From positions 64,001 through 128,000 of the forward strand of contig CAWFQB010000009.1 in the NCBI GenBank assembly GCA_963817895.1: a stretch of 64,000 bases of DNA, written 5' to 3'. Below are positions 10,037-32,451 of this stretch, piece by piece. How positions within the stretch are numbered: position 1 is the first letter of the stretch; each line of letters starts with the position of its first letter. Made by a program: the position numbers and the translations under genes. The notes under the pieces were generated by a model, which was given only the letters and a program-made list of their open reading frames with translations, searched no databases and had not been told where the DNA came from. The stretch is from an uncultured Chthonomonadaceae bacterium. GTDB lineage: Bacteria > Armatimonadota > Chthonomonadetes > Chthonomonadales > Chthonomonadaceae.

Positions 10037-10048
10037 AGAGGTACGCTC

Positions 10049-10441
10049 ATGGCTGTTGAAGAGAAAATCAAACGCAACTGGCAGATCGAAGACGAATTTT
10101 CCGAGCCGGCGAGACTGCTTCAAGAGCAGGCAAAAACGATCCGCGAAGAAACAGACGGCGTTCTTTATGGCATCGTGAAAAAAGACATTCTTCCTCCGGT
10201 CAACGGGGTTGGATATCATCTCGACGTTGGCATTGAAGGAAATGTTTTTCGTTCTTCCTCCATTTCCATACGTCACAAGCGAGATGCAGAGTACCCGGTT
10301 ATCGTTACCAACATGCTTGAAGGCGACGGTATGAAGGTAGCCGACGCCGAGGCTTTCAAGCAGCGCGTCTGCGATATTTTGCACGATTCAACCACGCTTG
10401 CGCAGTATAAGCGCATGATAGAATACGCAAAGAAGCCTTAA
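10049..10441 (+). CDS. Hypothetical protein, probable partner of the EEP gene
   Basis: Starts 12 nt after the EEP stop with GAGG RBS; N-terminal W...P-x-x-LL-x-EQA...T-x-G-x-L motif. Confidence 0.7.
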   Translation: MAVEEKIKRNWQIEDEFSEPARLLQEQAKTIREETDGVLYGIVKKDILPPVNGVGYHLDVGIEGNVFRSSSISIRHKRDAEYPVIVTNMLEGDGMKVADAEAFKQRVCDILHDSTTLAQYKRMIEYAKKP

Positions 10442-10458
10442 TCGGTAAGAAGGATTCT

Positions 10459-10794
10459 ATGGCAGCCAGCGAAAAACGGGTTCAGTTACAAATTGGAATC
10501 ATAGCCATTGTCTCTACACAAGATGACATGGATTGCGTTGAATTGTGTACCACGCCAGACGAACAGGAAGTGAGGGGTTTCAACACAAAGGGCTTTCTGT
10601 TGAAATATGGCTTGGAAGAGCATAAGGGCTTTCACCTTTTGCTCAAGCAACTCGAGGCGACTATCAGCTTGGGGATTGATCGTCAGACTTATTGCATGAA
10701 AACAGGTCAAACTGACGATTTCTTAAAAACGGTTGACCTGTTAATAGCCGACTATTTCTCTTATGCTTGTACTCGCGGCGATGCTTCATTCTGA
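10459..10794 (+). CDS. Hypothetical protein
   Basis: AAGGA RBS, operon spacing, 111 aa. Confidence 0.5.
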   Translation: MAASEKRVQLQIGIIAIVSTQDDMDCVELCTTPDEQEVRGFNTKGFLLKYGLEEHKGFHLLLKQLEATISLGIDRQTYCMKTGQTDDFLKTVDLLIADYFSYACTRGDASF

Positions 10795-10880
10795 CAATTC
10801 AAGATTGCCTGTTAGAGGTGAGTGGGCGTACCATTCAACAAATTTTTCTCATTCAGCAAGTCATTCTAAAGGCGAATGCT

Positions 10881-11717
10881 ATGCGGCCTATATGGATAAT
10901 TGAAGCGGGCGTGTTCGGGCAGAACGCGGAACGGCTACGGGCGGAAGTGGAGCGGCAGGGCATGGAATGCTGGTCGGTACGACAGTACGCGCTTGCCGAC
11001 GATTCGATGGCGTCCCTGCGCGGCGAACCGCTGGCGCCTGACGATTGCGTGATTTGCTACAGCACGTTTCCGTTTGCTCAAGATGTGGAGGCGCGAGGAT
11101 GGAAATCGGGAGCGTGGTGCAGTTTCGATAATCTGGCATGTTCGATGTACTACGCTTATTTTGGGCGTTATCTGCTCAATCAGCAGTATACGCTGCTTCC
11201 CAGCCTTGAGGCCATGCGGCAACGGGAGTTTCTGTATCAGACATTTGGACGGAACGGACAGGTGTTCGCGCGTCCCAACGGCGTGGAGAAACTGTTTACG
11301 GGGCGGTGTGTTGCCGAAGAAGATTTTGCGGTTGCGCTTGCCCCGGCCCGCTATAACCCGACAACACAGGTTGTGATCGCCGCGCCGCAAACTATTGGGC
11401 GCGAGTGGCGGCTGGTGGTTGCGGAACACGCCATTGTTGCGGCAAGTCAGTACATGGAGCAGGGAAAGTTTGCCGTCGCGCCCGGTTGTCCCAAAAGCGT
11501 CCGCGAATTTGTACAAAACATGCTCAACGAAGTTCAATGGCGTCCCGACCCGATATTTATGGTGGATGTATGCGAGTCGAACGGAAATCTATATCTGCTG
11601 GAATTGAACAGTTTCAGTTGTTCAGGATTGTATCAGTGCGACATGGCCGAAGTCGTTGCCGCAGCAAGCGACATAGCCCAACAAACGCGCGTATCGAACT
11701 TTGTAGCATCCGCGTAA
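10881..11717 (+). CDS. ATP-grasp domain protein (DUF4343/R2K-like)
   Basis: VFARP...KLFTG, REWRLVV, SQY, MVDVCES...LLELNSFSCSGLY. Confidence 0.8.
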   Translation: MRPIWIIEAGVFGQNAERLRAEVERQGMECWSVRQYALADDSMASLRGEPLAPDDCVICYSTFPFAQDVEARGWKSGAWCSFDNLACSMYYAYFGRYLLNQQYTLLPSLEAMRQREFLYQTFGRNGQVFARPNGVEKLFTGRCVAEEDFAVALAPARYNPTTQVVIAAPQTIGREWRLVVAEHAIVAASQYMEQGKFAVAPGCPKSVREFVQNMLNEVQWRPDPIFMVDVCESNGNLYLLELNSFSCSGLYQCDMAEVVAAASDIAQQTRVSNFVASA

Positions 11718-11836
11718 TCTATGGATTGTTCTTTGCCTTTCTTCTGCTTTCTTTGCGGTCTTTGCGCCTTTGCGGTTTGCATCTGAATGTTTTCGTCTTA
11801 TTTTGCTTCTTTCGCGGTTAATTCAGGGAGAACTAC

Positions 11837-13001
11837 ATGCCGGAATTTTCTTTAAGTACCGATAACTGGGATTTGCATCAGCGCGCGGAACGGGACCGCC
11901 AGCGCCACAACGACAAGGTGAAAGAGGTCATCAAGCAGAATCTTGGCGACATCATCAGCCAGCAGGACATCATCACGGCGGATCAGGGCAAGATCGTCAA
12001 AATTCCCGTGCGCGGCCTGGAACTGCCCCGCATCCGCTTCGACAACGACGAGCGCGAACGGGTCGGGCAGGGCGGCGGCGGTTCCAAACCCGGCGACATC
12101 ATTGCCCGCGCCCCTTCGGATGAGGAGGGACAGGGGACGGGCAAGCAGGCGGGACAGGAACCGGGGACAGACTTTTACGAGGCCGAACTGACGCTGGAAG
12201 AGCTGACCAGCCTTGTGTTTGAAGACCTGCACCTGCCCAATCTGGAAGAGCGCGGCGTCAAGCAGATCATGTCGGAACACGCCGACTTCAACAGCATCAG
12301 CAAGCGCGGCATCACCAGCAATCTGGATCGCAAGCGGACGCTGCTGGAAGCCTATAAGCGCAATGCCCGCGAGGGCAAACCCGGCTGGACGGTGAAGAAC
12401 GAGGACCGCCGCTATAAAACGTGGGAAGTGGTGACGGAGCCGCAGCGCAACGCGGTTATCTTCGCCATGCGCGACGTGTCCGGCTCGATGGGCGAATTTG
12501 AAGCGTATATCTGCCGCTCGTTCTACTTCTGGATGCTGCGCTTCCTGCGCAAAAAATATTCCAGCGCGGAAATCGTGTTCATTACCTGCCACACGGAAGC
12601 CAAAGAGGTGGATGAAAACGCCTTTTTCGGACTGGGCGATTCGGGCGGCACGAAAATGAGCGAGGCGTACAAGCTCGCCATGCGGATCATTGACAAGCGC
12701 TACAATCCGCGCGAGTGGAACATCTACCCGTTCCTGTTTTCCGACGGCTACAACTGGGGCGATCAGGAATGCGTGGAGCTGATGAGGAAAATGGTGGAAA
12801 TCTCCAACCTCATCGGGTACGGCGAAATCGCCAACGACATCTGGAGCCAGTCGCCCTCTTTCGCGCCGCTCGGACAGGCGTATGAGGAGGCGTTCGCCGA
12901 ACGAACCGCGCGTCTGCCTGGTCAAAATCAACAACAAGGAAGACGTCTGGCCCGCCCTGCAAAAGTTCTTCAGCAAGCACCCGGAATTGCAGACTGCGTA
13001 A
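11837..13001 (+). CDS. yeaH: YeaH/YhbH (DUF444) protein, frameshift near 12900
   Basis: AMRDVSGSMG, SGGT, WNIYPFLFSDGYNW; C-terminus ...INNKEDVWPALQKFF... lies in a shifted frame ending at TAA 13001. Confidence 0.9.
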
Positions 13002-13017
13002 GGAGACCGGTTCAGCC

Positions 13018-14471
13018 ATGAACCATAAAGACCGCGAGGAACTGGAAAAGTGGATTGACATTATCACGGAAAAGGCGGCGGAGTACGGGCTGGACTGCTA
13101 CCCGACGCACTTTGAAGTGGTTCCCGACCACGTTATCTACGAACTCGGCAGCTACAGCCTGCCCGCCCGCTTTTCGCACTGGACGTTCGGGCGCGATTAT
13201 CACCGCCAGAAGACCATGTACGATTACGGCATGGCGAAAATCTACGAGATCGTCTTCAATACCGATCCGTGCCAGGCGTTTCTGATGGACAGCAACAGCA
13301 TGCTGTCGCATAAGTTCGTCGTGGCGCATGTTTTGGGACACAACGACTTTTTCAAGAACAACAGTCTATTTCGAGCATACCGACCGGCGCATGATCGAAA
13401 AAGTCCGGCTGCACGGCAACCGTATCCGCAAGTACGAAGAAGAGTACGGCCCGATGGCAATCGAGGAGTTTCTGGATGAGGTAATCTCCATCGAGGAACA
13501 CTTCGATACCGGCCTGACAACCTCGTTCCGCCGCAAAACGCCCGAACAGCACGAAGCGGAACGCCTGAAGCCCTCCAAACCGACAACCGAATACGATGAC
13601 CTGTGGAACCTGTCCCAAACCCAGAGCGGGCCGGAGCAAACCGAAAGCGCGTAAGTTCCCGCCCGAACCCGACAAAGACCTGCTCGGTTTTTTGCGCGAC
13701 CACGCTCCCGAACTGGAAAAATGGCAGCGCGACATCCTCAACATGATCCGCGAGGAGATGATTTATTTCATCCCGCAAATGCGTACGAAGATAATTAACG
13801 AGGGTTGCGCCTCATTTTGGCATGAACGAATCATGACGAATCTGGATTTAACGCCGCAAGAGCATCTGGAATTTCGCCGCCTGCATGCGTCCGTGCTGTC
13901 GCCGGGTTCGCCCATGTCTATCAATCCGTACTATGTCGGCTATAACATTTTCCGCGACATCGAGCGGCGGTGGAATGGCGAAGAAGATAAAGAATTTCCT
14001 GAGAGCGACTGGCGGGGCGAGGAACTGCATCGTCCGAGCGGCGAAGGTATCAAGAAAATCTTTGAAGTGCGGCGGGATGAGGCCGACGTGACGTTCCTGC
14101 GCAAGTACCTGACGCAGGGATTGGTCAACAGGCTGGACATGTACACCTACAAGCAGGAAGAAGTGAACGGCGAAAACATGTGGGTGGTGCAGGAAACCGA
14201 CTGGCGCAAAGTGCGCGATACGCTTCTGGACGGCATGACCAACTTCGGTATTCCGGTCATTTATGTGGAGGACGCGGATTACAACCGGCATGGCGAATTG
14301 CTGCTGCGCCACGCTTATGACGGCAAACCCTTAGACCGGGATTACACCGCCCGCACCATGAAACACATCTTCAACATCTGGAAGCGGCCCGTACATTTGC
14401 AAACGGAATACGACGATGAAACGGTTTTGTTGTCGCACGATGGCGAGGATTTCACAGAAGAAATTCTTTAG
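13018..14471 (+). CDS. spoVR: SpoVR family protein (frameshifts near 13365 and 13620)
   Basis: LPARFSHWTFG, KIYEIV, AHVLGHNDFFKNN, TKIINEG-x-ASFWH, NPYYVG, GELLLRH. Confidence 0.9.
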
Positions 14472-14632: not shown

Positions 14633-15832
14633 CTAGCGCAGCGGGTGGTGAATATTCGCTTTTCGCGGCGTGGGTTTCACGGGTATGGGCATGGTCAGCG
14701 CTTTGAGATGCTTTGCCAGCGCGGACGCAGTTGCCAACGGACTGCCGATGCCTTCACTGGCGGGACGCCCGTTTTCTGCCGGGTACAGGTATTTGCCCTG
14801 CTCCGCGCCCGTCTTCTCCGTCTCCACGACAAGGGGATGAGCGCGGGCATACGCATCCTGCCGCGTTCCCGTCACCTGCCACGATACTTCCATGCCCGCC
14901 TTGCCGCCCGCGATCTCGAACCGGTTGCTCCGCATCTTCTGCGCCACAAACAGAGCCGGAGCCGCTTCGCCGATGGCGGTCAGCTGGTAGTGGAAGCGGG
15001 TGTTTTCCGCCTCGAACCAGTCGGGCATCTGCACGGTCGCCCGTCCGTCGCTGTCGAGGATTGTGTCGCCCGTATACAGGTTGAGTTGTTCGCTGCTTTC
15101 GATGCAGCTATGCGTGAGGTACTTGTGGGCGGGATCGAGCGGATGATCTATCTTGAAGTTCTTGGAGCCTGCGCTGAGAGTGCCGATCACCTGCACATTG
15201 CCCTGAAAGTATCCGCCGAAGCCCCCTCTGGAAGCCGTCTCGCCATATACGCCGACGCGCCCGTACCCCGCCGTTCCGAAGCCCGCATTACAATGCCCTT
15301 CCATCCCGACCGCATTGTAAAACGCGTTGTTGTTGAAGAAGTAGCCGGTGGGACTGACGTTGGAGTCGCCGATGCCGATGATGGCTGCGCCGCCGTTCGT
15401 GTTGGTTCCATACAAGCCTGCCCCGCTGCTGCCCGCGCTCGTGGTTCCATACACGCCGATGCCGCTGACGGACGCGCCGTACACGCCCGAACCGCTGGAA
15501 CCATCCCCAAACCCGTACACGCCCGTTGTGGTCGCTCCCGCATTGGCATAGCCGTACACGCCCGAACCGCCCGTGCTGGTGGCGTACAAGCCCACGCTGG
15601 CCGGATCCATACTGGCGGTACTGGCGAACACGCCATCGCTGACGTTGCCCGTGGTGGCGTCATTGGAAAACGCCGCGACAGCGCTGTTGACCGCCTCCGC
15701 ATCTCCGGCATACGGCAGGCTAAACCCGGTAGACTGGCTGATGGCGGGCTGATACGCCACGACCACACTCAGCAACGCCACACTCCCCGCCCACCGCAGC
15801 GGCAGGGGGCATTTTCGTATCCATGTCTTCAT
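14633..15832 (-). CDS. Secreted Gly-rich (GVYG repeat) fibre-like protein with a C-terminal chaperone-like domain
   Basis: AAGGAG RBS, signal peptide, repeated GVYG, C-terminal KNFKIDHPLDP...LTH...ES...YQLTAIG. Confidence 0.75.
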   Translation of the reverse strand: MKTWIRKCPLPLRWAGSVALLSVVVAYQPAISQSTGFSLPYAGDAEAVNSAVAAFSNDATTGNVSDGVFASTASMDPASVGLYATSTGGSGVYGYANAGATTTGVYGFGDGSSGSGVYGASVSGIGVYGTTSAGSSGAGLYGTNTNGGAAIIGIGDSNVSPTGYFFNNNAFYNAVGMEGHCNAGFGTAGYGRVGVYGETASRGGFGGYFQGNVQVIGTLSAGSKNFKIDHPLDPAHKYLTHSCIESSEQLNLYTGDTILDSDGRATVQMPDWFEAENTRFHYQLTAIGEAAPALFVAQKMRSNRFEIAGGKAGMEVSWQVTGTRQDAYARAHPLVVETEKTGAEQGKYLYPAENGRPASEGIGSPLATASALAKHLKALTMPIPVKPTPRKANIHHPLR

Positions 15833-15935
15833 CGCGCACTCTCCTTTTGGCAACGGCAGTAGCAAAGTAACTCGTCTGCGATAGCAGAGTAACCCATCAG
15901 AAATCATTGCCCGCTCAGGCAACACCTCCTGAACA

Positions 15936-15969
15936 CAGTATAACCGATGTTTCGTTACTACAGCGTTAC
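15936..15969 (-). promoter_or_regulatory. GTAACG-repeat promoter, site A
   Basis: Minus strand GTAACGC-TGTA-GTAACGA-AACATCGGT-TATACT. Confidence 0.75.
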
Positions 15970-16008
15970 AGAATATCCGTCCAGCGCGGATACGGGTCGC
16001 GCGGTTTT

Positions 16009-16063
16009 GTAACGTAATTGATGCATTTGGTAACGCTGTAGTAACGGAACCTCGGTTATACTG
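16009..16063 (+). promoter_or_regulatory. GTAACG-repeat promoter, site B
   Basis: GTAACG at 16009, then GTAACGC-TGTA-GTAACGG-AACCTCGGT-TATACT. Confidence 0.75.
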
Positions 16064-16168
16064 TGCCTGACGCGGGAAGCGCGCCGAAGCGGAAGATTTG
16101 CCGCTTCCTGCGAACGCGCCCTGCGTCCCGATATGACAACAGATTATCCATATAAGGAGAACTCGATC

Positions 16169-18656
16169 ATGCGCGCCTTTTCTCGTATTCCCCTGCGCTC
16201 ACGCAGGCCTATTTCCCGTTGGCTCGTTTCCCTGTTGGGACTGCTGCTGTTCAGTCTGGCATGTGCCGCCTCACGAGCGAATACCTTCACCGTGACAACC
16301 CTCAACGACAGCGGCATGGGTTCGCTGCGGCAGGCGATTACCGATGCCAACGCCAATGCGGGAGCCGACAGCATTGTATTTGCCAGCGGGTTGACAGGAA
16401 CCATCGCGCTCACGTCTGCCCTGCCCAACCTGACGGATGATGTTACGCTGAACGGGCCGGGAGCCAAACTGCTGACGATTGCCCGCAGTTCGGCGTCGGG
16501 AACCCCGGCGTTCCGCATCTTCACCATTGACGCGGACACAGCTACGCCCCCGACAGTCAGTATCTCCGGCCTTACGTTGAGCAACGGCTTGATACAATAC
16601 ACAACAGGCGGCGAGAAATACTATGGTGGCGCGGTGCTGAGTAACAAAGCCAATGTGACGTTTACCGACTGCGCCCTCTCCGGCAACAGCATCTACTTGC
16701 CTTTCGCGCTTAATTATGGAACGAACCCTCCCGTTCCTCTCGGCTTCGGCGGCGGCGTCTACAACTATCAGGGAGCGATGACTCTGACGCGCTGCACAGT
16801 CAGCAACAATGTAGTCACCTCGTATGGCGGTCAGGCCAACGGCGGCGGCCTGTTCAACGATGCGGGAACGCTGACCCTGACCAACTGCACCCTCAGCGGC
16901 AATCAAGCCGTCAGTCAAGCTATCCTGATTCTAATACGCTGGTCATACCCCATGATTATGAACGGCAGCGCGTATGCTGGCGGTATCTGGAACGGCGGCG
17001 CGCTGACCCTGACCAACTGCACTTTCGCCGGTAACAGCGCTATCAACCACTGTTTGGGTTATGGCTGGGATGGATGGTTTTTTATTCCGTATGATACTGC
17101 GGGCAGCGGCAGTAGCGTGTACAATGCCGGCACAAGCGGCAGTACGCAAGTCACCCTCTACCAGACCATTCTGGCAAGCGGCAGCGCGGCAGGCGGCCAG
17201 AACGTTGTCAACGCGGCGGGCATCGTCCTCACCTCACTCGGCTACAACCTGAGCAATGACGCCACCGGCCCCAACGACGGCGCAACGGATCGTCTCAACA
17301 TGGATGCGAAACTCAGCCCGCTGAACTACTACGGCGGCCCAACGCCTACCTGCGTTCCGCTGTTGGGCAGTCCGGCTATTGACGCGGGCGACCTCAACTT
17401 CAATAACACTCCTCCCGCAACGGATCAGCGCGGCCAGCCTCGCGTTGTCAACGGACGGGTAGACATCGGCGCTGTGGAGCGTCAGGCAGGCGAGTTGGTT
17501 GCCCTCAACGATGCGTACTCCGTCAAGCATGACCATACGTCGCGAGTTGCCGCGTCCGGTGTGCTGACAAACGACACGGGAGTGGCTCCCCTGTCCGCCG
17601 TTCTCGTCGCGTCCGCCGCGCATGGCACCCTCCTGCTCAATGCCGACGGCTCGTTCGTGTACACGCCCAACGCCGGGTACGCATTAACCAGCAGCAGCAC
17701 AGACAGCTTCACCTACGCGGTACAGGACGGCATCGGCAGGACAAGCAACGTCGCCACTGTAACCATTACCATCATTGCCGACAATGCGCCTGTGTTGACC
17801 AACAGCCTGAGCGCCACCACAATGCCGGGGCAGGCGTGGAACTTCACGGCAACGGCAACGGACGCCGATCTGCCCGACGACGCGCTCACCTTTGCCCTTG
17901 TCAATGCCCCCTCCGGCATGACCATCAACGCGGCAACCGGCGCAATCGCGTGGACGCCACAGGCAGAAAACACAACAACGTTTAGCATCAAAGTCACGGA
18001 TCGTTATGGACTGAGCGCCCAGGCAGACGTTCACGCTCACCGTGTACGACAACCCGCCCGCGCTGACCAACAGCCTGAGCGCAACAGCAACGGCAGGGCA
18101 AGTCTGGAACCTCACGGCAACGGCAACGGACGCCGACCTGCCCAACGACGCGCTGACGTTTGCCCTTGTCAACGCCCCGGCTGGCATGACCATCAACGCG
18201 GCAACCGGCGTGATCGCGTGGACACACCGAACAGAAGGCGTGTTTACATTTGACATCAAGGTCACGGATCGGTTCGGCAAAAGCGACCAGAAGACGTTCA
18301 CGCTCACGGTACAAACCGACCCGAACGGCTCTGTCAGTCTAAGCATTACGAATGTCACGCTGCAACGCGGCGCGTACTACCCAAATACGGTGCTAGTCTT
18401 GTTCGATGTGGTCAACAACGGCACAGGGAGGGCGACAAACCTTGTCATTTCGCGCGCCACACTCGGCTCCGGGTTGTGCGTTCTCAACTCCACGCCGGTC
18501 AGTTTGGGGGCAGGAGGCAAGCAGACGTACGGGCTCACGTTCTTAGGGGTCGTGTGCCTGCCGAAAGTGGTATATCCGCTGCAAATACGCGGAACCTACC
18601 AGGCGCAGAATACCACGCAATCCCTGTTTTATGGCGGCGGCGTGATTGTGCCATAA
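16169..18656 (+). CDS. Secreted adhesin-like protein: beta-helix/choice-of-anchor Q, Ig-like and two putative Ig domains (frameshift near 18025)
   Basis: VTTLNDSGMGSLRQAI, GGPTPT...SPAIDAG...DQRG...DIGAVE, GTLLLNADGSFVYTP, duplicated ATDADLP...GMTINAATG domain. Confidence 0.85.
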
Positions 18657-18749
18657 TCGCTTGCAGGCTTTTACTGCCGGATTCGCGTCACCGCAGCAGG
18701 ACGCGACTCAGCGTTATCGTGACGAACATCGCGTCAATCTAAATTTTTA

Positions 18750-18783
18750 GTAACGCAACGGTAACGCAAATCCGGTTATACTA
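18750..18783 (+). promoter_or_regulatory. GTAACG-repeat promoter, site C
   Basis: GTAACGC-AACG-GTAACGC-AAATCCGGT-TATACT. Confidence 0.75.
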
Positions 18784-18913
18784 TGCTCACGGGGCAAGCG
18801 CGCAGAGTCCGGATGCTCTGCCGCTTCCCCTGTCTCCTGCTGGTTATGCCCGTCAACGATGTCAGGAACTATCAACTATCAACCCTCAACTCTCAACTTC
18901 GACAGGAAGCCGG

Positions 18914-21900
18914 ATGGACGACCGCTTTTATATCACCGGGGGTACGCTGCCCCTGGACGCCGATTCGTATGTGACCCGCCGCGCCGATACGGAACTCTTC
19001 GAGTATCTGCGGCGGGGCGAGTTTTGCTACGTTCTCAACACGCGGCAGGTGGGCAAATCCTCGCTCATGGTGCGCGTGGCCCAGGCGCTGCGAACCGAGG
19101 GCGTTCGCGTCGTCCTGCTGGACCCGACCGCGATTGGCGTAAACGTCACCGTCGAGGAGTGGTACGACGGCCTGCTTACCATCATTGCGGAGCAACTGAG
19201 TCTGCGGCGGGAACTGGAAGACTTCTGGCTGGAGCATCCCCGTTTGGGGCCGATGCAGCGGTGGATGCAGGCGCTGGAACATGTCGCGCTGGCAGGTTCG
19301 CCGGAACCCCTGTGCATCTTCGTGGACGAGATCGACTCGGTGCAAAGCCTGCCGTTTTCCGCCGATGAGTTTTTCGGAGGCATCCGCGAGTGTTATAATC
19401 GCCGCGCCTACAATCCGGCCTTCCGGCGTCTCACCTTCTGCCTGCTCGGAGTCGCCGCGCCCGTTGACCTGATCGCCGACCCGCGCATCACGCCGTTCAA
19501 TATCGGCAGGCGCATTGAACTAACGGACTTCACGCCGGACGAAGCCGCGCCACTCGCAAGCGGATTAAACCACGGGGAACACGGGGAACACGGGGGAGGA
19601 GAGGGGGAGAAAGGAAGGGGGGAACAAAATCCCTATTCATCCTTCATCCTTCATCCTTCATCCTTTGCTTCTCTTCTCAACCGTATACTTTATTGGACAG
19701 GTGGGCATCCGTATTTGACGCAGAAATTGTGCAGCGCGTTGGCGCAAAGAAACGGGGTTCCGACAAATGCCGACGTGGATGCGGTTTGTGAGGAACTGTT
19801 TTTGAGTTGGCGGGCGCAGAAGACGGACGACAATCTCGTTTTTGCCCGCAGCCGCCTGCTGTATGAGGAAGCCAATCGCGCCGCGCTGCTGGATATGTAT
19901 GTGGGTATTCTGGACGGGCGGAAAATTCGGGACGATGCCACCAATCCCCTCCACAGCGTTTTGCGTTTGTCCGGCATTGCGCAGGCCGAGAATGGACTGC
20001 TGACGGTTCGCAACCGAATCTATGCCCATGTGTTCAACAAGCAATGGGCGCGCGACAACATGCCGGGCGAGGAACTGCGGCGGCAAAAACGCGCCTATCG
20101 CCTGGGCGTCTTGCGGACGGCGTTCGTCGCCGCCCTGCTGCTGGCCGTGATTTCTGGTTTTGGCGCGCGAGCTTACTTTGCGGAGCAAAACGCGCGGACA
20201 TCCGCAAAGGCGGCACGAACCTCCGAAAAGGCTGCTCAGACGGCGCAAGAACTGGCGCAAAAGGAGGCAGAAAATTCCAATCGGCTGCTGTATGCTACCC
20301 ATATGAACCTGCTGCAGCGCGCGTATCAGGACGAGGACATTGGACGCGCCAGAGACCTGCTGGCGGAAACAGAGGCATCGCCCTATCGCGGCTTTGAATG
20401 GAACTACTGGAACCGCCTGCTCAAGCGCGAACGCCTTGCCCTTCCCATCGCGGAGCCACAAAGCCTGCTCGTCTGGTCACGAGACGGGCGCTGGATCGTG
20501 ACACAAACGCAGTCCACACAGAATACGCCCCACCTCTCCCTCTGGGACGCCTGGACGGGAAAGCATGTTCGAACGCTTGCGGGGCGCGCGGATACTTTGC
20601 TCGGCGTAGCCTCGCCCATTGCGGCCAACTGTGTCGCGCTCGTGGATGCGCCGCAGGGGAAAACGGGAACCGTCCGTCTGGTCAACCCCGCGACGGGCGA
20701 AACTCGGCATATTCTGCCTGTTCGCGCCGGGGGAGCGACGCTGTCCGAGGATGGCAGGCGCGTGTTTACGCTGGAACCGCAGTCGGACAACTGCACTCTG
20801 TTCAAGGCATGGGATGTGGAGCGCGGAACGCTGTTGCTAACCACGACGGTTAGCGGCGTACAGCTTTTTGGGGCGTGGACACAAACGCCCACGATCCAGT
20901 CCACCCGCGACTCGCGCCTGCTGTGTTTCGGCAGCGCGATAACGCGCGAGAACAGTCCTTTCACGTTGCTGAACACGCAGACCGGCGAACGTCAGTGGAC
21001 GCCGCCGGGAGCCTACAACCGTTACGCTCTTTCTCCCACCGGGCGCTTTCTCGTGGCAACAGAACAGGATGGCTTTGCGGCTGGCGCGTTTCAACTGTGG
21101 GACTTGCAGGCAAAGCGGCAGGTCGCCACCCTGCGGGGCAAACAAGCGAATGCGCCCGCCCTGCGCCCGCTTCCTACATGCTGTTCACGCTTGGTTTCTC
21201 CCCGAACGAACGCTGGATAGTGGGCGCGGGAGAGGATACGGCGTTCAACGGTTGCGTCTGGATTTGGGAGCGGGCGACGGGCAGGGAAAAGCGCGTCCTG
21301 ACCGGGCAGCGGCGAACGTGGGAAGCGAAGTTTTCTTCCGATGGCCGCGTGCTGTTTTCCGCTTCGAGAGACAACCGCCTATTCACCTGGAACACGGCAA
21401 CGTGGCAAAAAACCGGCGTGTATTCCAATGACGGCACGAATTCGCCTGTTCTGTCTCCCGATGGCAACGAGTTTCTGACGGTAGACCATCGCGGCGCTGT
21501 CCTACCCCCTGCAAGCCCGCCGGATGGCGGACAAACTTGAGATCGCTCCATCGCTCAAGGCGTCCGTTATAAGATACCAGGGTTTTCAGCGTGACGAGAG
21601 GCATTTGCGATTTCGTGGCGCAAATACGACCCGGGGACAACCGGCAGCACCGCATCTACGATATGCAAACAGGAATGCAGCATCTTCTGCCCTTTGATCA
21701 CACGGCGTCTGCCATTACTGTGGGAAACGACGCGTACGCCGCCGCCGCCAAAAATTTTGAAAAGGAAACATGGGTGGAAATACGGGACGGATTCTACAGG
21801 CAAGTTCATCCGTTTGCTGCATGACCCCCTGCTCTACTGGTGGATACGCGCCGACGGACCGTGGTGGGCGGCAATCCTCTACGAGGGCAAAATCAGCCCC

Positions 21901-22651
21901 ATGAGGGAAAGCGCGTTCGCCGGTCTTGGCAAGCATCATCCGCAGACGGTCTTGTGGAATGTCGAAACCGGAAAAGAGGTCGTTCGCCTTGCTCATCTGC
22001 GTTACACGCCCTGGCAGGTCTGGCCCAAATGCGGGACGCGCAAACTGATCCTCGTAGACACCGAGAATATTGCCCACTTTTGGAACGTCAGCCCCTTGCG
22101 GGAGACTCTTTCAGGTGCCAATGGGATCGGAAACACAGATAAAACTGGAAAATTTCAGCGTTTCGCCGGACGGCAAATACGTCAGCGTTCTCATCGCAGA
22201 AAACCATTTCGACGGGCGGATTGAAGTCCATGATTTCGAGACGGGCCAACTCTGCGCGCAAGATGAACACGCCTTTTATTATCAGCCGAGCAACGCCTTT
22301 TCGCCGGATGGAAAGGTTCGCGTCTGGGTGGACACGCAGCAGAACGCGCATCTCATGGAGGGGGCGACGGGCAAAGAAGTGGGGCTGTTGAAATCTATCG
22401 GCGGAGATTTTTCGTATCTGGCCTTTTCGCCGGATGGAGCGCGCATCGTTACGGGCACAACCGTCGGAACGCTCAAGCTGTGGGATGTCAGGACGGGAGC
22501 GGAACTGATGGTTGCCCGGTTGCCCGGCGAATTGGGTCCGTTGTCCTTTTCACCGGATGGAACGCATCTGGGAGTGAACGCCTGGACCAGCGGAAAAATA
22601 CGCGCGTTCGTCTGGGAGGCTCCCCTGCCTGCCGCCGTCAAGAGCCAGTGA
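18914..22651 (+). CDS. AAA_35 (AAA-like NTPase) - transmembrane helix - WD40 protein (several frameshifts 21170-22140)
   Basis: RQVGKSSL, IFVDEID, TPFNIG, WTGGHPYLTQ; TM VLRTAFVAALLLAVISGFG; RGFEWNYW; repeated FSPDG..LWD units spread over ORF fragments. Confidence 0.8.
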
Positions 22652-22718
22652 AGACTACAGCGGAGTTCCCGACAGCGCGTTCCGTTGCGCGTACAACAAC
22701 GCGCAGCCAGGTGGGAGC

Positions 22719-23571
22719 CTAATGCAAGTCCCAGAGATACTTGTCCCTGTCGGTAATGCTGCCTCTCCACCCGTCCTTCACATCGCAGCCTGCGGCCAGC
22801 GCGCTCATGGTCAGAGCTTTCACGTGCCCGTCGCAGAACGCGACTGTGGCAAACTCGCCATGCCAGGGCCAGACAGCGCCATAGACGTTTGGGGCCGTCC
22901 GGCTGGCCGGGGTTCCAGCCGCCAACCCATGTACGCCAGTTTTCGCTATAGGGAACATCGTCCGTCCAGCATGGCATATCCACTACCAGGGTGCCTCCGC
23001 CGTAAGGCGCGCCATCAACCTTCCTGAACCATCGGGAATCCACCGCGAGAACAGTTTGGGCAGACGAGGTGATCCTGGCGATTGGCGTCGGCCTGCTGGA
23101 ATACACATCCGCATCATCCAGTATGATAGGACTGAGATACTGAAAGTTGAAACCGAAGTTGGTCTTAATTCCCAGATTGAAGTCCCGCTGCTGCGGCGTC
23201 GTGGGCGGCGGTAAGTCGCTGGCAGCGCGCTGCTCCTCGCTGTCAGGATCAGAGGGACAGGAATACACCTGCCTGTTCTTGAGGTAATCGCGCAGGGCCT
23301 GCCACATGATCATAGTAGGTGGACTATCAAAGGAGACATAGCCGCTGGCATCTAACGGGCGGGGGCTGGTATACAAAAGCGGCATCAACTCGTCGTTGTC
23401 CTGCTGATACTGCATAATGGCGAACGCCTGCTGCTTGAAATTGGACGCGCACGTCGTCTGACGCGCTTTGTCGCGCGACTGGGCAAAGACAGGAAAAAGC
23501 AGGGCCGCCAGAATAGAGATAATGGCGATAACAACGAGCAGTTCGATCAAAGTAAAGGCGCGCGGCTGCAT
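22719..23571 (-). CDS. Prepilin-type N-terminal cleavage/methylation protein with H-X9-DG (DUF1559), frameshift near 22895
   Basis: [35 protein letters not shown]-terminal HGEFATVAFCDGHVK in the second frame. Confidence 0.85.
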
Positions 23572-23842
23572 AAATTATCCATTGAGGATGGTTCAGGCCA
23601 GCGTCAATGGATTACTCATTGGAACAAAGCGCACCTGTCCTCGTTTTTATTTCCTTTGTTTTTGCCCACTATTCTTAGTATACCTACCAACGCTCAATTC
23701 ACATTGCATCTTCACAGAAAATTTTTTGGAAAAGACAGAAAAACAGCCCGCGCATTTCCTCCGGTGTAAAGAACAAGTCGGTTCTTCTGTATACGCCTGT
23801 CCTGGAAATCAAAGTATATGCCGGCGTATAGAGGTTTCATTT

Positions 23843-24529
23843 TCACGGCCCAGGCAGGTACGTGATTTTGGAAAGGTTTTCCAGTCTTGTCCATTTGACA
23901 TGTGAGTTGAAGAATGCCATTTCGATGCCGCCGTTGTGACGGTTGATGCACAGCCTGCCCGAATCCAACTGACTAAATGGTCTTTCTACGCCAGAGGTAT
24001 TGCTACCGGTTTGCGTGTTGATGAAGCCGGGGCAGGCATTATTGCCATTGGGGATCCACGCGTCAATCCAGATGGCGTCGGCAAGGAGCATCGTTACGGA
24101 GGGTTGCGGCACCTGCGCGAGTGTGCAGACACCTTCCGGGCGCGCGCTACAATATAGCCAGCCGTTATAGGCGTAACTGCCGGAATAGCGAAAGCCATTC
24201 CATGCCTGCGACGCGCTCCCCATTTGTGGATCGTTGGAACGGGGTGGAGCATCAGGGCAAAGATGGACTTGCTTGTTTTTGATATAAGCCTCAAACGCGA
24301 CATTCCACAAATAGAGTTCGTTGATGACGCGATAATCCAGCAGTTGTTCGTCGTAGTCCTGCGAGTACATCGTTGCGCCGTAGGATAGTTGTTTGAGGTT
24401 GCTGGCGCAGCTAGTCTGCCTGGCTTTCTCGCGCGCTTGCGCAAAGACCGGGAACAAAATGGCTGCGAGTATCGCAATGATGGCGATGACGACGAGCAGT
24501 TCAATCAAGGTAAATCCGGCGCGTTTCAT
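23843..24529 (-). CDS. Prepilin-type N-terminal cleavage/methylation protein (DUF1559)
   Basis: [58 protein letters not shown]. Confidence 0.9.
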
Positions 24530-24656
24530 GACAATCCTCCTTTGCAAAGCAGGAATTGAAATACACAGCGGCGAACTGTGCGTTATACCGGGTTGAGGTC
24601 CGCAGAAATCATGCGACTTCTGCGGACCTCTCACTGTCAGCAAGAAAAGACAGCGT

Positions 24657-25670
24657 TTAGCAAGCCCGGACTTTGCGCGTTTTGCGGCGCAGAAAGCCCG
24701 CTCCCGCCACGCTCAGGCCGACAAGCAGGGCGACGCTGCCGGGTTCGGGAACGACCGTCACCATAAATGCGTGAACATATCCGTCCGCGCCGAGGTAGCT
24801 TCCCACAACCTGATTGCTTTCACTGACCCCGAATCCCATTAGAAGATTACGGTTATCGGGCGCATCAATCGGGGTAAAAACGCTGTTCTGGTAAAAGAAG
24901 GCATAGTCGCGATTGCCCAGAGTATATTCGCCGAGAACAAGGCCGCTGGAATTAACGCCGAAATAGGAGGGGTCCGCGCCGCCGGGTATATCGGGAATCT
25001 CGGAATATATCCCGCTGCTGGCGTTATAAATGGCCCCGTGCCGCGCGTTGTTCTGGTCGCGATAGTTGACAAGGACATCGCCATTGGGCGCGAAATTGCG
25101 AGCGACGGTGTTGTAGCCGAGAACCTTGCTGGGCAAATCGGTAAAGGTTTGCGTGGCGGGATCATAAACGGACGCGAAACCAAGATTGTTGGAGTCCTGC
25201 CATGCCACCGCGAATTTGCCATTGTCCCCAATGCCGTTGTAACTTGTGGAAATAGAATTCGGATGTTGCGGCAGCAGGCTTCTCACGCCGCCGCTTGTGT
25301 GCACAAAAGGCTCATCCGTTGTGAAGGTGCTGTTGAAGTACTCCCCGTAGTAGGCGCCGCTGCTGTTGACCGGCCCGATGTAATTGTAAAAGCCGGAAGC
25401 GGTTCTCGGATCATCATGTCGCGTATAAACGCCATTGGACAAAATGTAGCCGTGTTGGATGTCCGTCGAGTAAACATACTGGCTGAGGGAGATATTTGCG
25501 CCCGACGAACTGATGCCATTTCCGTAAATGTCGTTTGGATCGTTCGGATCGTGGAGAACATCAATGTTGGTGTAAGACAAAGACAACTGCGCGTCGGCGG
25601 GACGGGCGGCAAACAGGGCAAGCACCGACAGGGCGATCAGGCCGGCTTGCAGGAAACGAGTGCGAGGCAT
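24657..25670 (-). CDS. PEP-CTERM sorting domain protein
   Basis: Signal peptide; C-terminal [27 protein letters not shown]. Confidence 0.9.
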
Positions 25671-25749
25671 GGTGTTCTCCTTTTGATTTGGGTGTGCAGG
25701 TGTTCGGGTGTTCAGGTGTTCAGGCGGGACACTTTACTTTTCCCTGATG

Positions 25750-25803
25750 CAGTATAGGTAATTTTGCGTTACCGTTGCATTACTTGCGTTACCGTTGCGT
25801 TAC
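25750..25803 (-). promoter_or_regulatory. GTAACG-repeat promoter, site D (four repeats)
   Basis: Minus strand GTAACGC-AACG-GTAACGC-AA-GTAATGC-AACG-GTAACGC-AAAATTACC-TATACT. Confidence 0.75.
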
Positions 25804-25850
25804 CAATTCTGGTGTTTGTACTGGCAATCGTCTATTTTTGTTGTAAGGAA

Positions 25851-27509
25851 ATGCTTTTGGCTTCTACTGTTCTTACCTTACGCCTGTTTGGGAATTGGGA
25901 GGCGCGTCTTGGGAACGCGCCGATTGTGGGATTGCATCTGCGCGAAGGCGAGCGCCTGCTGGCATACCTGACCCTGCATCACGACGCGATTGTCTCGTAC
26001 AGGGAGTTGGCGCAACAGTTCTGGCCTGCCGAAGCCACCGTTCACCCGGAATGGGCAGGCGGCAGTTTCCCCTCCACGCGGCAGGCTATTTATGCCCTGC
26101 GCCGCGCCCTGGGCGAACACGCGCCCCGCCTTGTCAGCGTCGGAAAAGGCATGATCCGCTTTGATCTGGAAGGCGCGGATGTAGACTACGCCGCCTTTCA
26201 GGAATTGATCGCGCAGGATAACCGCGAAGCGTGGAGGCAAGCGCAGGCCCTGTATCGCGGCCCTTTGCTGGAAGGCTGGACAGAAAAATGGGCGCAGGAA
26301 GCCCGCGTTCGCTGCCAGCGTTCCTATGAGCGCATAGTCGCGGCTCTGGCGGCTGCGCCGATTGAGCGGGAAGAAAAGGAGAAAAGGAGAAAAGGAGAAG
26401 AGGAGAGGGAAGATACAAGATACAAGATACAAGATACAAGACCGAACACCGAACACCGAACGCCAACCACCAGCCACCAACCACCAACCACCCTCCTCGA
26501 ATCCAACGGCGGCGCGGTTCCGCTGGATTTGCCGTTTTACATTGCGCGGGAAACGGATGGAGGATTTCAGCAGGCGATCCAACGACGCGACAGCATCGTT
26601 CTGGTCAAGGGGACGCGGCAGATCGGCAAAACATCGCTTCTGGCGCGGGGATTGCAGGGGGCGAGACAGGATGGGGCGCGAGTGATATTCACGGATTTTT
26701 CCAGTTTGCCCTCCGAGTTGCTGACATCGCTGGACGCGCTGTATCGCATACTGGCGCAGGACATCGCCTATCAGTTGGATTTGGAGGCCGACCCGGAAGC
26801 GGATTGGAATACGCGCCGCAGTCCCAATCGTAATTTGGAGCGGTTTATCAGCGATATGGCGCTGCCGGAAGTCGGGGCGTCGCTGGTGTGGGGCATGGAT
26901 GAAGTGGATACGCTGTTCCAGTTTCCATTCGGAACCGAAGTCTTTCGCCTGTTCCGCTCGTGGCACAACCGCCGCGCCCTAGACCCGCGTGGCTCCTGGT
27001 CACGGCTCACGCTGGTAATGGCGTATGCGACGGAAGCGCATCTGTTCATTCAGGACGTCAATCAATCGCCCTTCAACGTGGGAACCCGTTTGGCGCTAGA
27101 GGACTTTACGTTCGCGCAGGTAACTGAACTCAACGTTCGCTATGGCAAGCCCCTGCCGGACGATGCTGCTGTACAGCGATTGTACGCGCTGCTCAACGGG
27201 CATCCGTACCTCACCCGCCGCGCCCTCTCGGAGATGCAGTCACGTCCTGTAACCATAGACACGCTGGAAGCGCAGGCGGGGCGCAACGAAGGCGTTTTCG
27301 GCGATCATCTGCGCCGCCTGTTCACGTCCCTCACTCAGAACTCGGAACTTACCGACGTGGTTCGCGGTTTCCTGACAGGACCGTTCTGCGCGTCCGAAGA
27401 CGCTTTTTACCGACTGCGCAGCGCGGGGCTGCTCGCGGGCGAAATGCCGGAAGAGTGCCATTGGCGCTGTCCCCTCTACGCCGCGTACTTCAAGCGATAT
27501 TTGAAGTGA
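25851..27509 (+). CDS. SARP-like (winged HTH/BTAD) transcriptional regulator fused to an AAA_35 NTPase
   Basis: LRLFG...LLAYL...LAQQFWP...LRRAL...VDY..F...ALYRGPLLEGW...W; then RQIGKTSL, MDEVD, SPFNVG, NGHPYLT. Confidence 0.85.
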   Translation: MLLASTVLTLRLFGNWEARLGNAPIVGLHLREGERLLAYLTLHHDAIVSYRELAQQFWPAEATVHPEWAGGSFPSTRQAIYALRRALGEHAPRLVSVGKGMIRFDLEGADVDYAAFQELIAQDNREAWRQAQALYRGPLLEGWTEKWAQEARVRCQRSYERIVAALAAAPIEREEKEKRRKGEEEREDTRYKIQDTRPNTEHRTPTTSHQPPTTLLESNGGAVPLDLPFYIARETDGGFQQAIQRRDSIVLVKGTRQIGKTSLLARGLQGARQDGARVIFTDFSSLPSELLTSLDALYRILAQDIAYQLDLEADPEADWNTRRSPNRNLERFISDMALPEVGASLVWGMDEVDTLFQFPFGTEVFRLFRSWHNRRALDPRGSWSRLTLVMAYATEAHLFIQDVNQSPFNVGTRLALEDFTFAQVTELNVRYGKPLPDDAAVQRLYALLNGHPYLTRRALSEMQSRPVTIDTLEAQAGRNEGVFGDHLRRLFTSLTQNSELTDVVRGFLTGPFCASEDAFYRLRSAGLLAGEMPEECHWRCPLYAAYFKRYLK

Positions 27510-27512
27510 ATT

Positions 27513-27666
27513 GTAACTATTCACCACCAAGACACGAAGAACACCAAGAAGAACGCGAGGAAAGCAATTGTGATATTGCAGGAGAAAACGAAATTGTCTC
27601 CGGCTCTGTGCCTTTTCGGTTGCTTTTTCTCTTGGTGTTCTTCGTGTCTTGGTGGTGAATAGTTAC
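27513..27666. repeat. Large palindromic element between convergent genes
   Basis: 36-bp perfect inverted repeat GTAACTATTCACCACCAAGACACGAAGAACACCAAG (27513-27548 / 27631-27666). Confidence 0.85.
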
Positions 27667-29764: not shown

Positions 29765-31095
29765 CATAAGTGTCGAAAGCCCGCCTGCTTGCCTTATTTT
29801 GGCTAATCATCGGGTACAAATGGCGTTGCGCACAGCACCTGGCGCGTCCATACACGGCAGTCTTCGGCCAACCAGAACTTGACGGAACGCCAACCCCGAT
29901 CAATGCCCGTCTGCTGTTTGTACCAGATCAGCAGCAAGGCGGCAATCAGGCTCATATAGATCATGATGGTGATGCCGTTCTCGTTGCGACTGAGCAGGTG
30001 ACTATACGAGAGGTGTTGCTTGACAAACTTGAAGAACACCTCGATGTCCCAACGGGAACGGTACAGGGCCGGGATTTCAGCAAAAGTATACAGACCTGCG
30101 TGTTGCCCGTCCTCAGACACGGGCAAGTTGGTCATCAACACGAGCGGCAGCCACAGGTTGCGCCGTTTGTCAAAGCGCAGACCGTGTACCAGCACCAGCG
30201 GCATCCTGTCCCAACGCGCTTGTTCCTCCTGCGTTTCTTGATTGTTGCCAAACACCGCCTGCTGCACCTGTACCAGCACAAAGTCCGGTTCCTGCGCTTG
30301 GGGCGCTTGTGTGGGCAGACACTGTGGGGCGGCTTGCCACAGCGTTTGCACTTGCTGAAAGGCTTGTTGGCTGTGCGGCGTCAGCCAGAAACTGCCCGCC
30401 TGATGCAGCCGCGGCAAACGGGAGCGGTCATGGCAGCCTTTGTCGAATATCCAGAAATCGCCGGGTTGGGTATGCGCCAGCATGGTATTGCCCAGCGCCA
30501 CACAATCGCTCTTGTCGGACTTGGATTTGCACACCTTGAGTAACTGTGGCAGGCCCTCCTGGGAGAGTTCCACGACGCTCTTGACATGGCGCAGCGTCTT
30601 GTCAGGATTGGTCGTCTGATTGGACAAACCAAACGTCAGGAGCTTGGCCGACAGCGTGACCGTGGTGGCGTCAATGCGGCGCAAACGCAACGTCTGTGCC
30701 GTTGCCGGGGTGATCTTGGGAGACAACTTGGCGTACAGGTCGCCAAACAGGTCGCCAAAATAGGCCGGAGGCAACTTTGCCAGACACTTGCCCCAACTGC
30801 TATGGTCGCTACGACTGCTATGGTCGCTACGACAGCCCGTTTGCTGCTGATACGTTTCCTCCAGCACCCGCTGGCTCAACTCAGGATGGTTGAGCAGCCC
30901 ATTGAGCAGGCACAAGAATACGACGGGGCCGGGCAACCGTACATTAGGGTGTACATCTATTTCATAGTGACACGCCAGTTGTTCCAAGCGTGTCAGGGGT
31001 ACAAAGTCAAAGAGTTTTTTCAGAGCAATCATGCTCTGATTTTACAACCAACGGGGCGTACTCGCAAGTGAACGAGCGGGCTTTCGACACTTATG
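29765..31095 (-). mobile_element. IS4-family insertion sequence, 1331 bp
   Basis: 20-bp perfect TIR CATAAGTGTCGAAAGCCCGC; 10-bp TSD CAGCAAGCAG (29755-29764, 31096-31105). Confidence 0.9.
29803..31032 (-). CDS. IS4-family DDE transposase
   Basis: IDATT, IFDKG, LYRSRWDIEVFFKFVKQHL (Y-x2-R-x3-E-x6-K signature). Confidence 0.9.
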   Translation of the reverse strand: MIALKKLFDFVPLTRLEQLACHYEIDVHPNVRLPGPVVFLCLLNGLLNHPELSQRVLEETYQQQTGCRSDHSSRSDHSSWGKCLAKLPPAYFGDLFGDLYAKLSPKITPATAQTLRLRRIDATTVTLSAKLLTFGLSNQTTNPDKTLRHVKSVVELSQEGLPQLLKVCKSKSDKSDCVALGNTMLAHTQPGDFWIFDKGCHDRSRLPRLHQAGSFWLTPHSQQAFQQVQTLWQAAPQCLPTQAPQAQEPDFVLVQVQQAVFGNNQETQEEQARWDRMPLVLVHGLRFDKRRNLWLPLVLMTNLPVSEDGQHAGLYTFAEIPALYRSRWDIEVFFKFVKQHLSYSHLLSRNENGITIMIYMSLIAALLLIWYKQQTGIDRGWRSVKFWLAEDCRVWTRQVLCATPFVPDD

Positions 31096-31150
31096 CAGCA
31101 AGCAGCGCCCCTACAACGTACCCTGTCATTCTGCATTGACGCCACGCTAA

Positions 31151-32451
31151 GGGACTCTCAAGAATTAAACTGTTCCATTGGCAACGGTGTCGGGTCGTAT
31201 CTCGACGAACCACTTGTCCAAGCCGGGTAGTCGGCGTACCTGTGTCTCGACAGCCTTCATGGCTTTCTGGCTCAACTTGACCCCGATGGCGTAGGTCGTT
31301 TCCAGCAACTCCACGCTCGGATGCTTTCCCTTCCAGGTCATGGAGCGGGCAAAGTTGACCACGGCGTCTACACTGTCGAGCAAGTCGCCATTCCAATGGT
31401 TCTCCAGAACGCCCCAACAGCGTTCGATGGGATTGTACTTGCTGTGGTAAGGCGGATAGTACGCCAACTGGATGCTCAGCCCGGTTTCGGCGACAAACTG
31501 CACCAGCCGATGCAGGAACTGCGTACGTCGGCTGTGACACTCCGGGCCGTTGTCGAGGTTGAGGTGCAGCGTCTTGATATGGGCGAAGCGGACACGATTG
31601 GCTTCCCACCAATGCTGCACAATGTCGGCCAGACAGTCACTCGTCACCTTGGAGGTCACCGCATACAAGGCGAGTTCGTCTAAAGACGGCAACAGCAAGC
31701 CCGACCGGCGTCACCTGGGCGTCGGGATGAAAGTCATGGTCGGCGGCATGGACCTGCACCCGGTTCTTGCCACCACGGGAATACTCGCCTACCTTGACGG
31801 TCGCCTTGGCATCCAGCGAGACCCGCAAGTCATCGGTTCGGCGTCGGCTTGCGGGTTGACCTGGCTCAAGTGGTCAAAGATGGCGTCGGTTTCGGCGATC
31901 TTTTTTTGGGTTGGCTCTTCTGCACCTTCTTGGGATGGTAGCCCAAGAAGGTTGAGCTTGTCGCCGAATGGTCTCCTCACAGGGCAGTTCGGCGTCCGTA
32001 TAGCCTTTTTGCGCAATCAATTGACGCCGCACTTCGGCAGCCGTCAAGCGGGTATAAAGCCGGTTGTTACGAAACTGCGGGTCGGTCTGGCTTTGCCCAT
32101 CGACAAGGGCACGGATGTCGTCAAGCAGATGCGGCAAATGCGCTTCGGCAGGTTTGCGTCCGCGCAGAGCGAAACGCATCGACACAGGTGAAGCCGCTAC
32201 GCAGTTCATGGGTGCCTTTGCGAATGGTATCGCGGTTCCAGCCGAGTTCGCGTTGGGCGAGGCGCTGCCCGCCTGCGCCGAGTTCTGCGACGATGCGTGC
32301 CATGAACAGGCGGCGGGCACTGCCTTTGAGCGTCTGGGCGGTTTCTCTGAACACGGACTTGAGACTATCCGTAAGTTCCACTGAGCCACTCCTGCGTTAT
32401 ATTAGCAGGTTCTTCCATATTTAGTGGCATACTTTAATCTTTGAGAGTCCC
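31151..32451 (-). mobile_element. ISAzo13-family insertion sequence with a frameshifted transposase (31165-32381)
   Basis: TIRs GGGACTCTCAAGAATTAAA / TTTAATCTTTGAGAGTCCC, TAA direct repeats; motifs SLDAKA, DNGPE, YYPPYHSKYNPIERCWG. Confidence 0.85.

Follow-up and report, generated by a model that had tools for sequence, protein, structure and literature searches.

A putative split, membrane-spanning STAND system with transcriptional output at a paired AAA_35 locus of an uncultured Chthonomonadaceae bacterium

The window analysed here is a 64,000-nucleotide (nt) stretch from an uncultured Chthonomonadaceae bacterium (G000:C9:64001-128000, in contig CAWFQB010000009.1 of a 7.48-Mb genome assembled in 14 contigs and 81% complete). 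It carries two genes with homologous AAA_35 NTPase domains, a relationship put forward in a preliminary description of the sequence and borne out by alignment (28% identity, E 1e-25) and by PF14516 matches in both. The first gene, here called the sensor, encodes an AAA_35 domain, a transmembrane (TM) helix and WD40 repeats; the second, the regulator, joins a SARP-type DNA-binding region to AAA_35; genes for putative surface proteins lie around them, and four promoters in the block carry one short repeat (Table 1). We lean, with some confidence, towards reading the two genes as a split, membrane-spanning STAND system with transcriptional output, in which the receptor NTPase would switch on the regulator NTPase and so free the SARP region.

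Table 1. Features of the paired AAA_35 locus (window positions; wHTH, winged helix-turn-helix; AF2, AlphaFold2)
Feature	Position	Strand	Basis and remarks
Regulator, SARP-AAA_35	25851..27509	+	Pfam, profiles, AF2 models
Regulator: SARP part, OmpR-type wHTH and first three BTAD helices	to about 26360	+	then low-complexity linker
Sensor, AAA_35-TM-WD40 receptor	18914..22651	+	~1,246 aa; Pfam, frame analysis, hydropathy
Sensor: N-type AAA_35 STAND NTPase	about 18914-20083	+	Pfam, alignment
Sensor: TM helix	20102-20158	+	hydropathy
Sensor: helical linker with LY..RGFEWxYW	to about 20411	+	then WD40 propellers
Box 1, GTAACG-N5-GTAACG-N10-TATACT	15937..15969	-	faces fibre-like gene
Box 2 (third half-site at 16009)	16030..16062	+	faces adhesin gene
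Box 3	18750..18782	+	upstream of sensor gene; predicted autoregulatory link
Box 4, four half-sites (spacing 11, 9, 11) and TATACT	25751..25803	-	faces PEP-CTERM gene; 48 nt upstream of regulator start
Fibre-like Gly-repeat secreted protein	14633..15832	-	likely start ATG 15832 after GGAGAG; probable target gene
Adhesin-like protein, choice-of-anchor Q / beta-helix / Big_9 / He_PIG	16169..18656	+	Pfam; NCBIfam NF041518, E 9e-19; probable target gene
Prepilin-like DUF1559 protein, H-X9-DG motif	22721..23571	-	no own box; assembly frameshift near 22899
Second prepilin-like DUF1559 protein	23843..24529	-	Pfam/NCBIfam; 127 nt 3' of PEP-CTERM gene
PEP-CTERM surface protein	24657..25670	-	weak match (Pfam, E 0.0034); divergent from regulator; probable target gene

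The first 170 residues of the regulator match AfsR (E 1.9e-13) and EmbR (E 4.3e-12) by profile, and EmbR and AfsR make up the top six Foldseek matches of the AF2 model of this part (pLDDT 93). The SARP assignment proposed earlier holds in that an OmpR-type wHTH is followed by a BTAD region, but this region is incomplete: three helices follow the wHTH where a complete BTAD has seven, and positions 25-71 of the 146 in the Pfam model are matched. In AfsR these three helices pack against the DNA-binding domain (PMC10936776). Residues of the AfsR recognition helix that bind the DNA backbone (R87, R94 and K95, with W74 aligned) are conserved in the regulator, and the two base-reading residues differ. 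A TTG start at 25764 was rejected, as it runs through box 4 and homologs begin near 25851. Beyond the linker, PF14516 covers residues 250-577 of the open reading frame (ORF; E 1.5e-73), and the AF2 model of this NTPase (pLDDT 91.8) has the P-loop nucleotide-binding domain, helical domain and winged-helix domain of the STAND fold. Its best fold matches are the MNS-clade STAND ATPases PabY2304 (2QEN; Z 21.9, root-mean-square deviation 3.7 over 307 residues) and SSO1545 (2FNA; Z 20.7), above CED-4 (Z 18.1) and then plant NLRs; by sequence, the AAA_35 profile found no solved relative in the PDB, with P-loop-level KaiC matches only. The Walker A, Walker B and GxP motifs typical of MNS-like STAND proteins are all intact (GTRQIGKT, WGMDE and GHP). 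This C-type NTPase forms the C-terminal end of the protein and no sensor repeats follow, which departs from the classical tripartite STAND arrangement of effector, NTPase and sensor in one polypeptide, effector and sensor here being on separate genes. As modelled, the regulator joins an AfsR/EmbR-type SARP that stops after BTAD helix 3 to an MNS-like STAND AAA_35 domain.

For the sensor, Pfam and hydropathy agree with the layout first described, of AAA_35, TM helix, helical linker and WD40. PF14516 matches residues 10-216 (E 5.5e-23), the TM helix spans residues 397-415 (mean hydropathy 2.07) with a basic stretch ahead of it, an Ala/Lys/Glu-rich helix and then the LY..RGFEWxYW segment follow, and the WD40 matches fall in downstream frame pieces. 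The preliminary description likened this post-TM segment to planctomycete kinase-WD40 receptors; whatever the phylum, the segment is shared with Ser/Thr kinase-TM-WD40 proteins, with PF00069 present in 13 of 15 matching proteins and the FEW motif in 10. The sensor NTPase keeps the RQxGKS, FVDE and GHP motifs and has lost the first Gly of Walker A. Codon usage points to five frame switches between 21150 and 22100. In a short-read contig from a close strain (X1; 20046-24500, 4.5 kb, 125 substitutions, depth 2.7) indels fall at 21154, 21489, 21611, 21795 and 22108 and sum to +3, so that the sensor frame is continuous in that strain, on the word of this one contig. A pseudogene reading was rejected, since the X1 contig is free of the frameshifts, and the gene is probably intact at ~1,246 codons, its five frameshifts having arisen in assembly. 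The same contig shows a single indel within each prepilin-like gene (22899 and 24218), the adhesin gene has one frameshift near 18020-18040, outside long-contig coverage, and many other genes of this genome, such as SpoVR, are likewise broken; judged from these comparisons, the module at this locus is real and probably intact. Short dispersed repeats cross the locus at 19570-19680, 26370-26495 and 18855-18905 (258, 484 and 29 BLAST matches in the genome, respectively), and such repeats lie in frame within the sensor NTPase, as a 26-residue insert that is not in the consensus, and within the regulator linker. Directly 3' of the regulator stop, at 27513-27666, is a perfect 37-nt inverted repeat with ~105 genomic matches, resembling repetitive extragenic palindromic elements.

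That four promoters share one motif was also correct. GTAACG-N5-GTAACG occurs four times in the genome, always within this block, where ~0.4 would be expected at a fixed spacing, and other GTAACG spacings occur 0-2 times each. A scan of the window allowing at most one mismatch gave 5 matches against 0.27 expected (0/100 shuffles). TATACT lies 10 nt past the last repeat at each boxed promoter (the proximal pair of box 4 has one mismatch), and none of these promoters has a consensus -35 element. SARP targets carry direct repeats 11 or 22 bp apart across the -35 region, and the predicted boxes have the SARP promoter form of 11-bp direct repeats over -35 at a fixed distance from -10. AfsR promoters are alike in their two 11-bp direct repeats over -35 and equal distance to -10; the conserved T of the boxes precedes the -10 hexamer by 15 and 26 nt and, if -10 starts at -12, coincides with T-27 and T-38 of the afs box, which AfsR R92 contacts (PMC10936776). 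The boxes are probably a SARP operator in afs-box geometry, as predicted from their sequence, with the fibre, adhesin, sensor and PEP-CTERM genes as targets. The proposed control of surface proteins would extend to the three boxed surface genes but not, in direct form, to the two prepilin-like genes, which lack a box of their own and would be indirect regulon members at best.

The genome holds 25 AAA_35 matches. Five loci, the window and L004-L007, pair SARP-AAA_35 with AAA_35-TM-WD40, and at others the output is TIR, cyclase or cyclase-TIR. A broken SARP gene (L011) is unpaired, as are three receptor genes (L008-L010), which have no partner within ~10 kb. Named homologs of the regulator occur in Chthonomonadaceae, Chthonomonadales, Capsulimonas and Armatimonas, and AAA_35 is patchy in Armatimonadota (27/151 genomes). 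The PEP-CTERM gene is homologous to its positional counterpart at L004 (30% identity, E 6e-36), which indicates that the whole unit was duplicated together. A relaxed box consensus gave 12 hits genome-wide, nine of them at SARP-AAA_35 loci, with none at the six non-SARP loci; L004 and L007 carry a one-base variant, GTCACG, and a box placed immediately 5' of the sensor gene is seen again at L007, L116 and L117, making four loci with the window. Paralogous modules whose boxes differ by one base allow cross-talk to be compared. GTCATG repeats at L006 failed a stricter scan and were dropped. Among the three remaining relaxed hits, one is beside an AfsR-like SARP gene and one before a prepilin-like gene; at L132:7438-8500 a GTCACG-type box precedes a lone prepilin-like gene with no SARP gene nearby, and this gene is possibly a distant target of a paralogous regulator.

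Across 41 genomes the box pattern gave 26 hits against 2 for a reversed control. Eighteen of these lie outside our genome, five at SARP-AAA_35 loci and five of the other 13 beside other SARP-like genes, and the GT[AC]ACG 11-bp box is common to several loci. Because the box is found also beside SARPs that lack AAA_35, its distribution makes it a wider Armatimonadota SARP box, of which the GTAACG variant marks this module in its own genome. The genome has 32 ORFs matching the SARP N-terminal profile, a large SARP expansion outside Actinomycetota. A generic scan for 11-bp repeats at 50 kinase, TIR or cyclase loci showed no enrichment (2 hits vs 6.7 expected). A three-gene arrangement is seen at L001:8256-13002, with TIR-AAA_35 of the C type, a soluble N-type AAA_35 protein and an N-type AAA_35 protein that has two TM helices but lacks a large sensor; the N-terminus of its first gene matches PADLOC PDC-S60.

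The pairing extends well beyond this genome. Six regulator peptides were used to scan GTDB, and the best 80 of 104 relatives were grouped as 79 loci, a sample that leans, through this query, to close relatives of the C-type domain. Both genes are present in 68 of these 79 loci, which answers the co-occurrence survey called for in the preliminary description: the N-type gene directly follows in 60 and lies elsewhere in the locus in 8, six loci are cut by contig ends, and five lack a partner despite long flanks. Paired loci come from Acidobacteriota, Verrucomicrobiota, Heliobacteriaceae and Armatimonadota. AAA_35 pairs were also found in cyanobacteria, as the preliminary description had stated; cyanobacterial and Chloroflexota plasmids carry such pairs, and one in Chlorohelix is followed by a choice-of-anchor Q gene. 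At 50% identity the family numbers 5,743 representatives (E<=1e-30 to the receptor-domain profile), a count that probably includes both types. A quick tree places the C and N types in two separate clades (SH-aLRT 100) with a very long branch between them. The identity matrices of 68 C/N pairs correlate at r 0.86, a value inflated by linkage and kinship, and the window and L004 paralogues, whose genes are ~3 kb apart, are sisters in both subtrees. Of 87 local proteins, 78 have a TM helix directly behind the N domain, as do 130 of 150 representatives; in 70 of the 78, Lys/Arg residues are more numerous ahead of the helix than behind it. Both types retain the Walker A Lys and the Walker B DE. One of the 150 proteins, P0153, is a natural N+C fusion, and ~20 have tandem N domains (P0136-P0151, two or three N-type domains); P0126 was rejected as a fused version, having a different NTPase and no TM helix after it.

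What stands on either side of the paired NTPases varies widely. Among 81 C-type proteins the N-terminal output is a kinase with or without TIR in 37, an OmpR-type wHTH alone in 24, cyclase-TIR in 8, TIR in 7 and SARP in 5; as Ser/Thr kinase outputs occur in 37 of these soluble partners, the earlier term kinase-free is apt for the present variant but not for the class as a whole. Among 41 post-TM regions not already called WD40, 13 contain PEGA/CarboxypepD_reg, 9 TPR, 7 WD40, 1 Sel1 and 1 caspase, with none in 10 (several cut short). PEGA and CarboxypepD_reg domains are usually extracytoplasmic. Judged by these architectures, the outputs (SARP, wHTH, kinase, cyclase, TIR) are interchangeable, as are the sensors (WD40, PEGA, TPR). 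The caspase-like case, L095:4002-7445, is a receptor-type protein with this domain past the TM helix.

The domains, motifs, operator, gene pairing and co-divergence set out above are what the data show of the split STAND system; the NTPase-NTPase contact, the signal and the sign of the feedback are what we infer. WD40 propellers outside the inner membrane would bind a ligand, and the linker and TM helix would relay the change to the cytoplasmic N-type NTPase. In the key step, the activated N-type NTPase would bind the C-type NTPase of the regulator, and either an ADP-to-ATP switch of the latter or the nucleation of a hetero-oligomer might result, as with a sensor NLR acting on a helper NLR. 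There is then good reason to expect that the freed SARP region would sit as a side-by-side dimer on the 11-bp GTAACG repeats over -35 and recruit RNA polymerase, and equally that the fibre, adhesin, PEP-CTERM and sensor genes would be turned on, with the surface remodelled and the receptor amplified. In AfsR, the NOD represses the SARP domain until ATP binds (PMC10936776); since the regulator has no sensor repeats, a comparable restraint would have to be lifted by some other trigger, for which the conserved partner is the obvious candidate. A predicted complex of the two NTPase domains with ATP and Mg scored 0.23 against a mark of 0.32, its controls were not folded, and it is not used as evidence.

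Several observations weigh against this split STAND reading. Co-divergence of the N and C types is also expected from simple linkage, and the lone receptor genes indicate exceptions to one-to-one pairing. Of 25 SARP-AAA_35 loci in other genomes only 5 have the box, and the generic repeat scan of the 24 wHTH-only loci found no comparable box (5 hits vs 2.7 expected). Given 32 SARP-like ORFs and a GTCACG box beside SARPs without AAA_35 (5/13 sites), another SARP could act at these promoters. The TM topology is taken from hydropathy, and the loss of the first Gly of the N-type Walker A leaves the nucleotide cycle of the receptor uncertain.

The alternative that best withstands the data, although we think it unlikely, is that the receptor NTPase keeps the regulator off at the membrane until a signal frees it, in which case the box upstream of the sensor gene would serve negative feedback. 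It is common for an activator to induce its own inhibitor, MalK-MalT and anti-sigma factors offer parallels for such sequestration, the degenerate Walker A would fit a scaffold, and the sensor-gene box is conserved at four loci. However, 83-86 of 88 receptor proteins retain the Walker A Lys and the Walker B DEID, and activation by oligomerisation would suit outputs that are enzymes (kinase, cyclase, TIR); if, as in AfsR, the NOD alone represses the SARP, the default state of a regulator without a sensor would be off, and an activator would be required. Less likely again is that the regulator acts alone or with some other input (nucleotide state, a kinase), the sensor being a surface-related target that signals elsewhere and the linkage a relic of an old tandem duplication. 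The orphan receptors, the five partnerless loci and the ability of AfsR to be switched by ATP with no partner would suit this account, but the pair persists through exchange of outputs and sensors, including outputs other than transcription factors, the N and C clades stay linked across their very long branch, and one fusion protein joins them. Least probable of the three is an Avs/nSTAND2-like system for anti-phage defence or conflict whose SARP arm induces protective surface proteins, for which the STAND fold with a WD40 sensor, the frequency of TIR as an N-terminal domain in the family, the proposal of two-STAND operons as counter-invader systems (nSTAND2; PMC8195603) and, weakly, insertion sequences ~2.3 kb downstream can be cited, but PADLOC gave no hit among 10 window proteins including both NTPase genes, 50,697 phage records contain no family match, and in place of the toxic N-terminal effector, cytoplasmic sensor and defence-model match of Avs/bNACHT systems the locus has no toxic effector, a SARP output, and a TM helix before a sensor predicted to face outward.

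Among known systems, AfsR-type large SARPs (SARP-NOD-TPR) and EmbR share the SARP fold of the regulator, with a STAND switch behind the SARP (PMC10936776), but the regulator here has no TPR sensor, has BTAD helices 1-3 only and uses an AAA_35 NTPase, sensing being placed on a second, membrane-spanning STAND protein. Two-component systems likewise join a receptor to a soluble regulator, often in one operon and with an OmpR-type wHTH output, but neither gene here has a Pfam match to a histidine kinase, a receiver or a kinase domain. Both an nSTAND2 two-gene system and an MNS-clade 'Npun2340/2341 family' are named in PMC8195603. The nSTAND2 system is similar in its adjacent STAND genes, predicted hetero-multimer and variable effector on one partner, but its effector-fused copy is inactive, its effectors are GT4 and HEPN, and it has no TM receptor (PMC8195603), whereas both proteins keep their Walker motifs here. 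None of the window proteins has an nSTAND2 Pfam match. The Npun2340/2341 family is said to originate with Leipe et al. in 2004, and its name suggests two adjacent genes, so that the pairing may have been in print since then; the AAA_35 pair may be this family. Synechocystis Slr0143 (Hat) may be another receptor of this type, a lead that the searches did not bear out. We found no published account of a SARP output, operator, regulon or mechanism for AAA_35 pairs in a search outside which most subscription papers lay; in the literature searched there was no naming paper for PF14516, and Kaur 2021 was the sole source for Npun2340 and the MNS clade. The supplements of a survey of 589 STAND clades (PMC13581612), as far as searched, contain no AAA_35, PF14516, Npun, MNS, Chthonomonas or Armatimonas.

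More broadly, the chances seem to us evenly balanced that AAA_35 N/C pairs make up a general class of transmembrane signalling in bacteria, beside two-component and extracytoplasmic function (ECF) systems, in which a receptor STAND protein activates its cognate soluble STAND protein by hetero-oligomerisation, sensors and outputs plug in, and specificity for partner and operator insulates one paralogous pair from another. In paired NLRs (NAIP-NLRC4, plant sensor/helper pairs), a sensing and an executing STAND protein divide the labour. Such a class would be their bacterial, membrane-spanning counterpart, with the difference that paired NLRs are cytoplasmic, eukaryotic and immune, and the present pair would cross the membrane and end in transcription. 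STAND signalling would here be split between a membrane receptor and a soluble activator, in a family widespread across several soil-dwelling phyla, and the locus adds a read-out for that family in a genome-unique short operator with four predicted target promoters. If the contact model is true, a STAND-to-STAND relay across the membrane would join phosphorelay and anti-sigma release as a route from cue to transcription.

The neighbouring genes are much as first described, with Pfam and NCBIfam identifying the adhesin, the PEP-CTERM protein (weakly) and both prepilin-like proteins (N_methyl/DUF1559 in Pfam). The second prepilin-like gene is possibly co-transcribed with the PEP-CTERM gene, to judge from its position. 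The fibre-like protein has no Pfam or NCBIfam match; in the Atlas it falls with unnamed clusters (0.95-0.97), the nearest named ones, PTL_trimer/collagen (0.81-0.82), serving as a lead only, and its putative fibre character is read from the Gly repeats and these weak leads. Elsewhere in the window, a prkA-yeaH(DUF444)-spoVR operon (7100-14471) has, inserted after prkA, an exo/endo-phosphatase gene, an ORF without assignment and an R2K ATP-grasp gene, and its spoVR is split by a frameshift. Two transposase genes (DDE_Tnp_1 and ISAzo13-type) lie at 29803-32389, ~2.3 kb 3' of the module, and a bacterial serpin gene (PF00079, E 1e-96) at 36881-38083.

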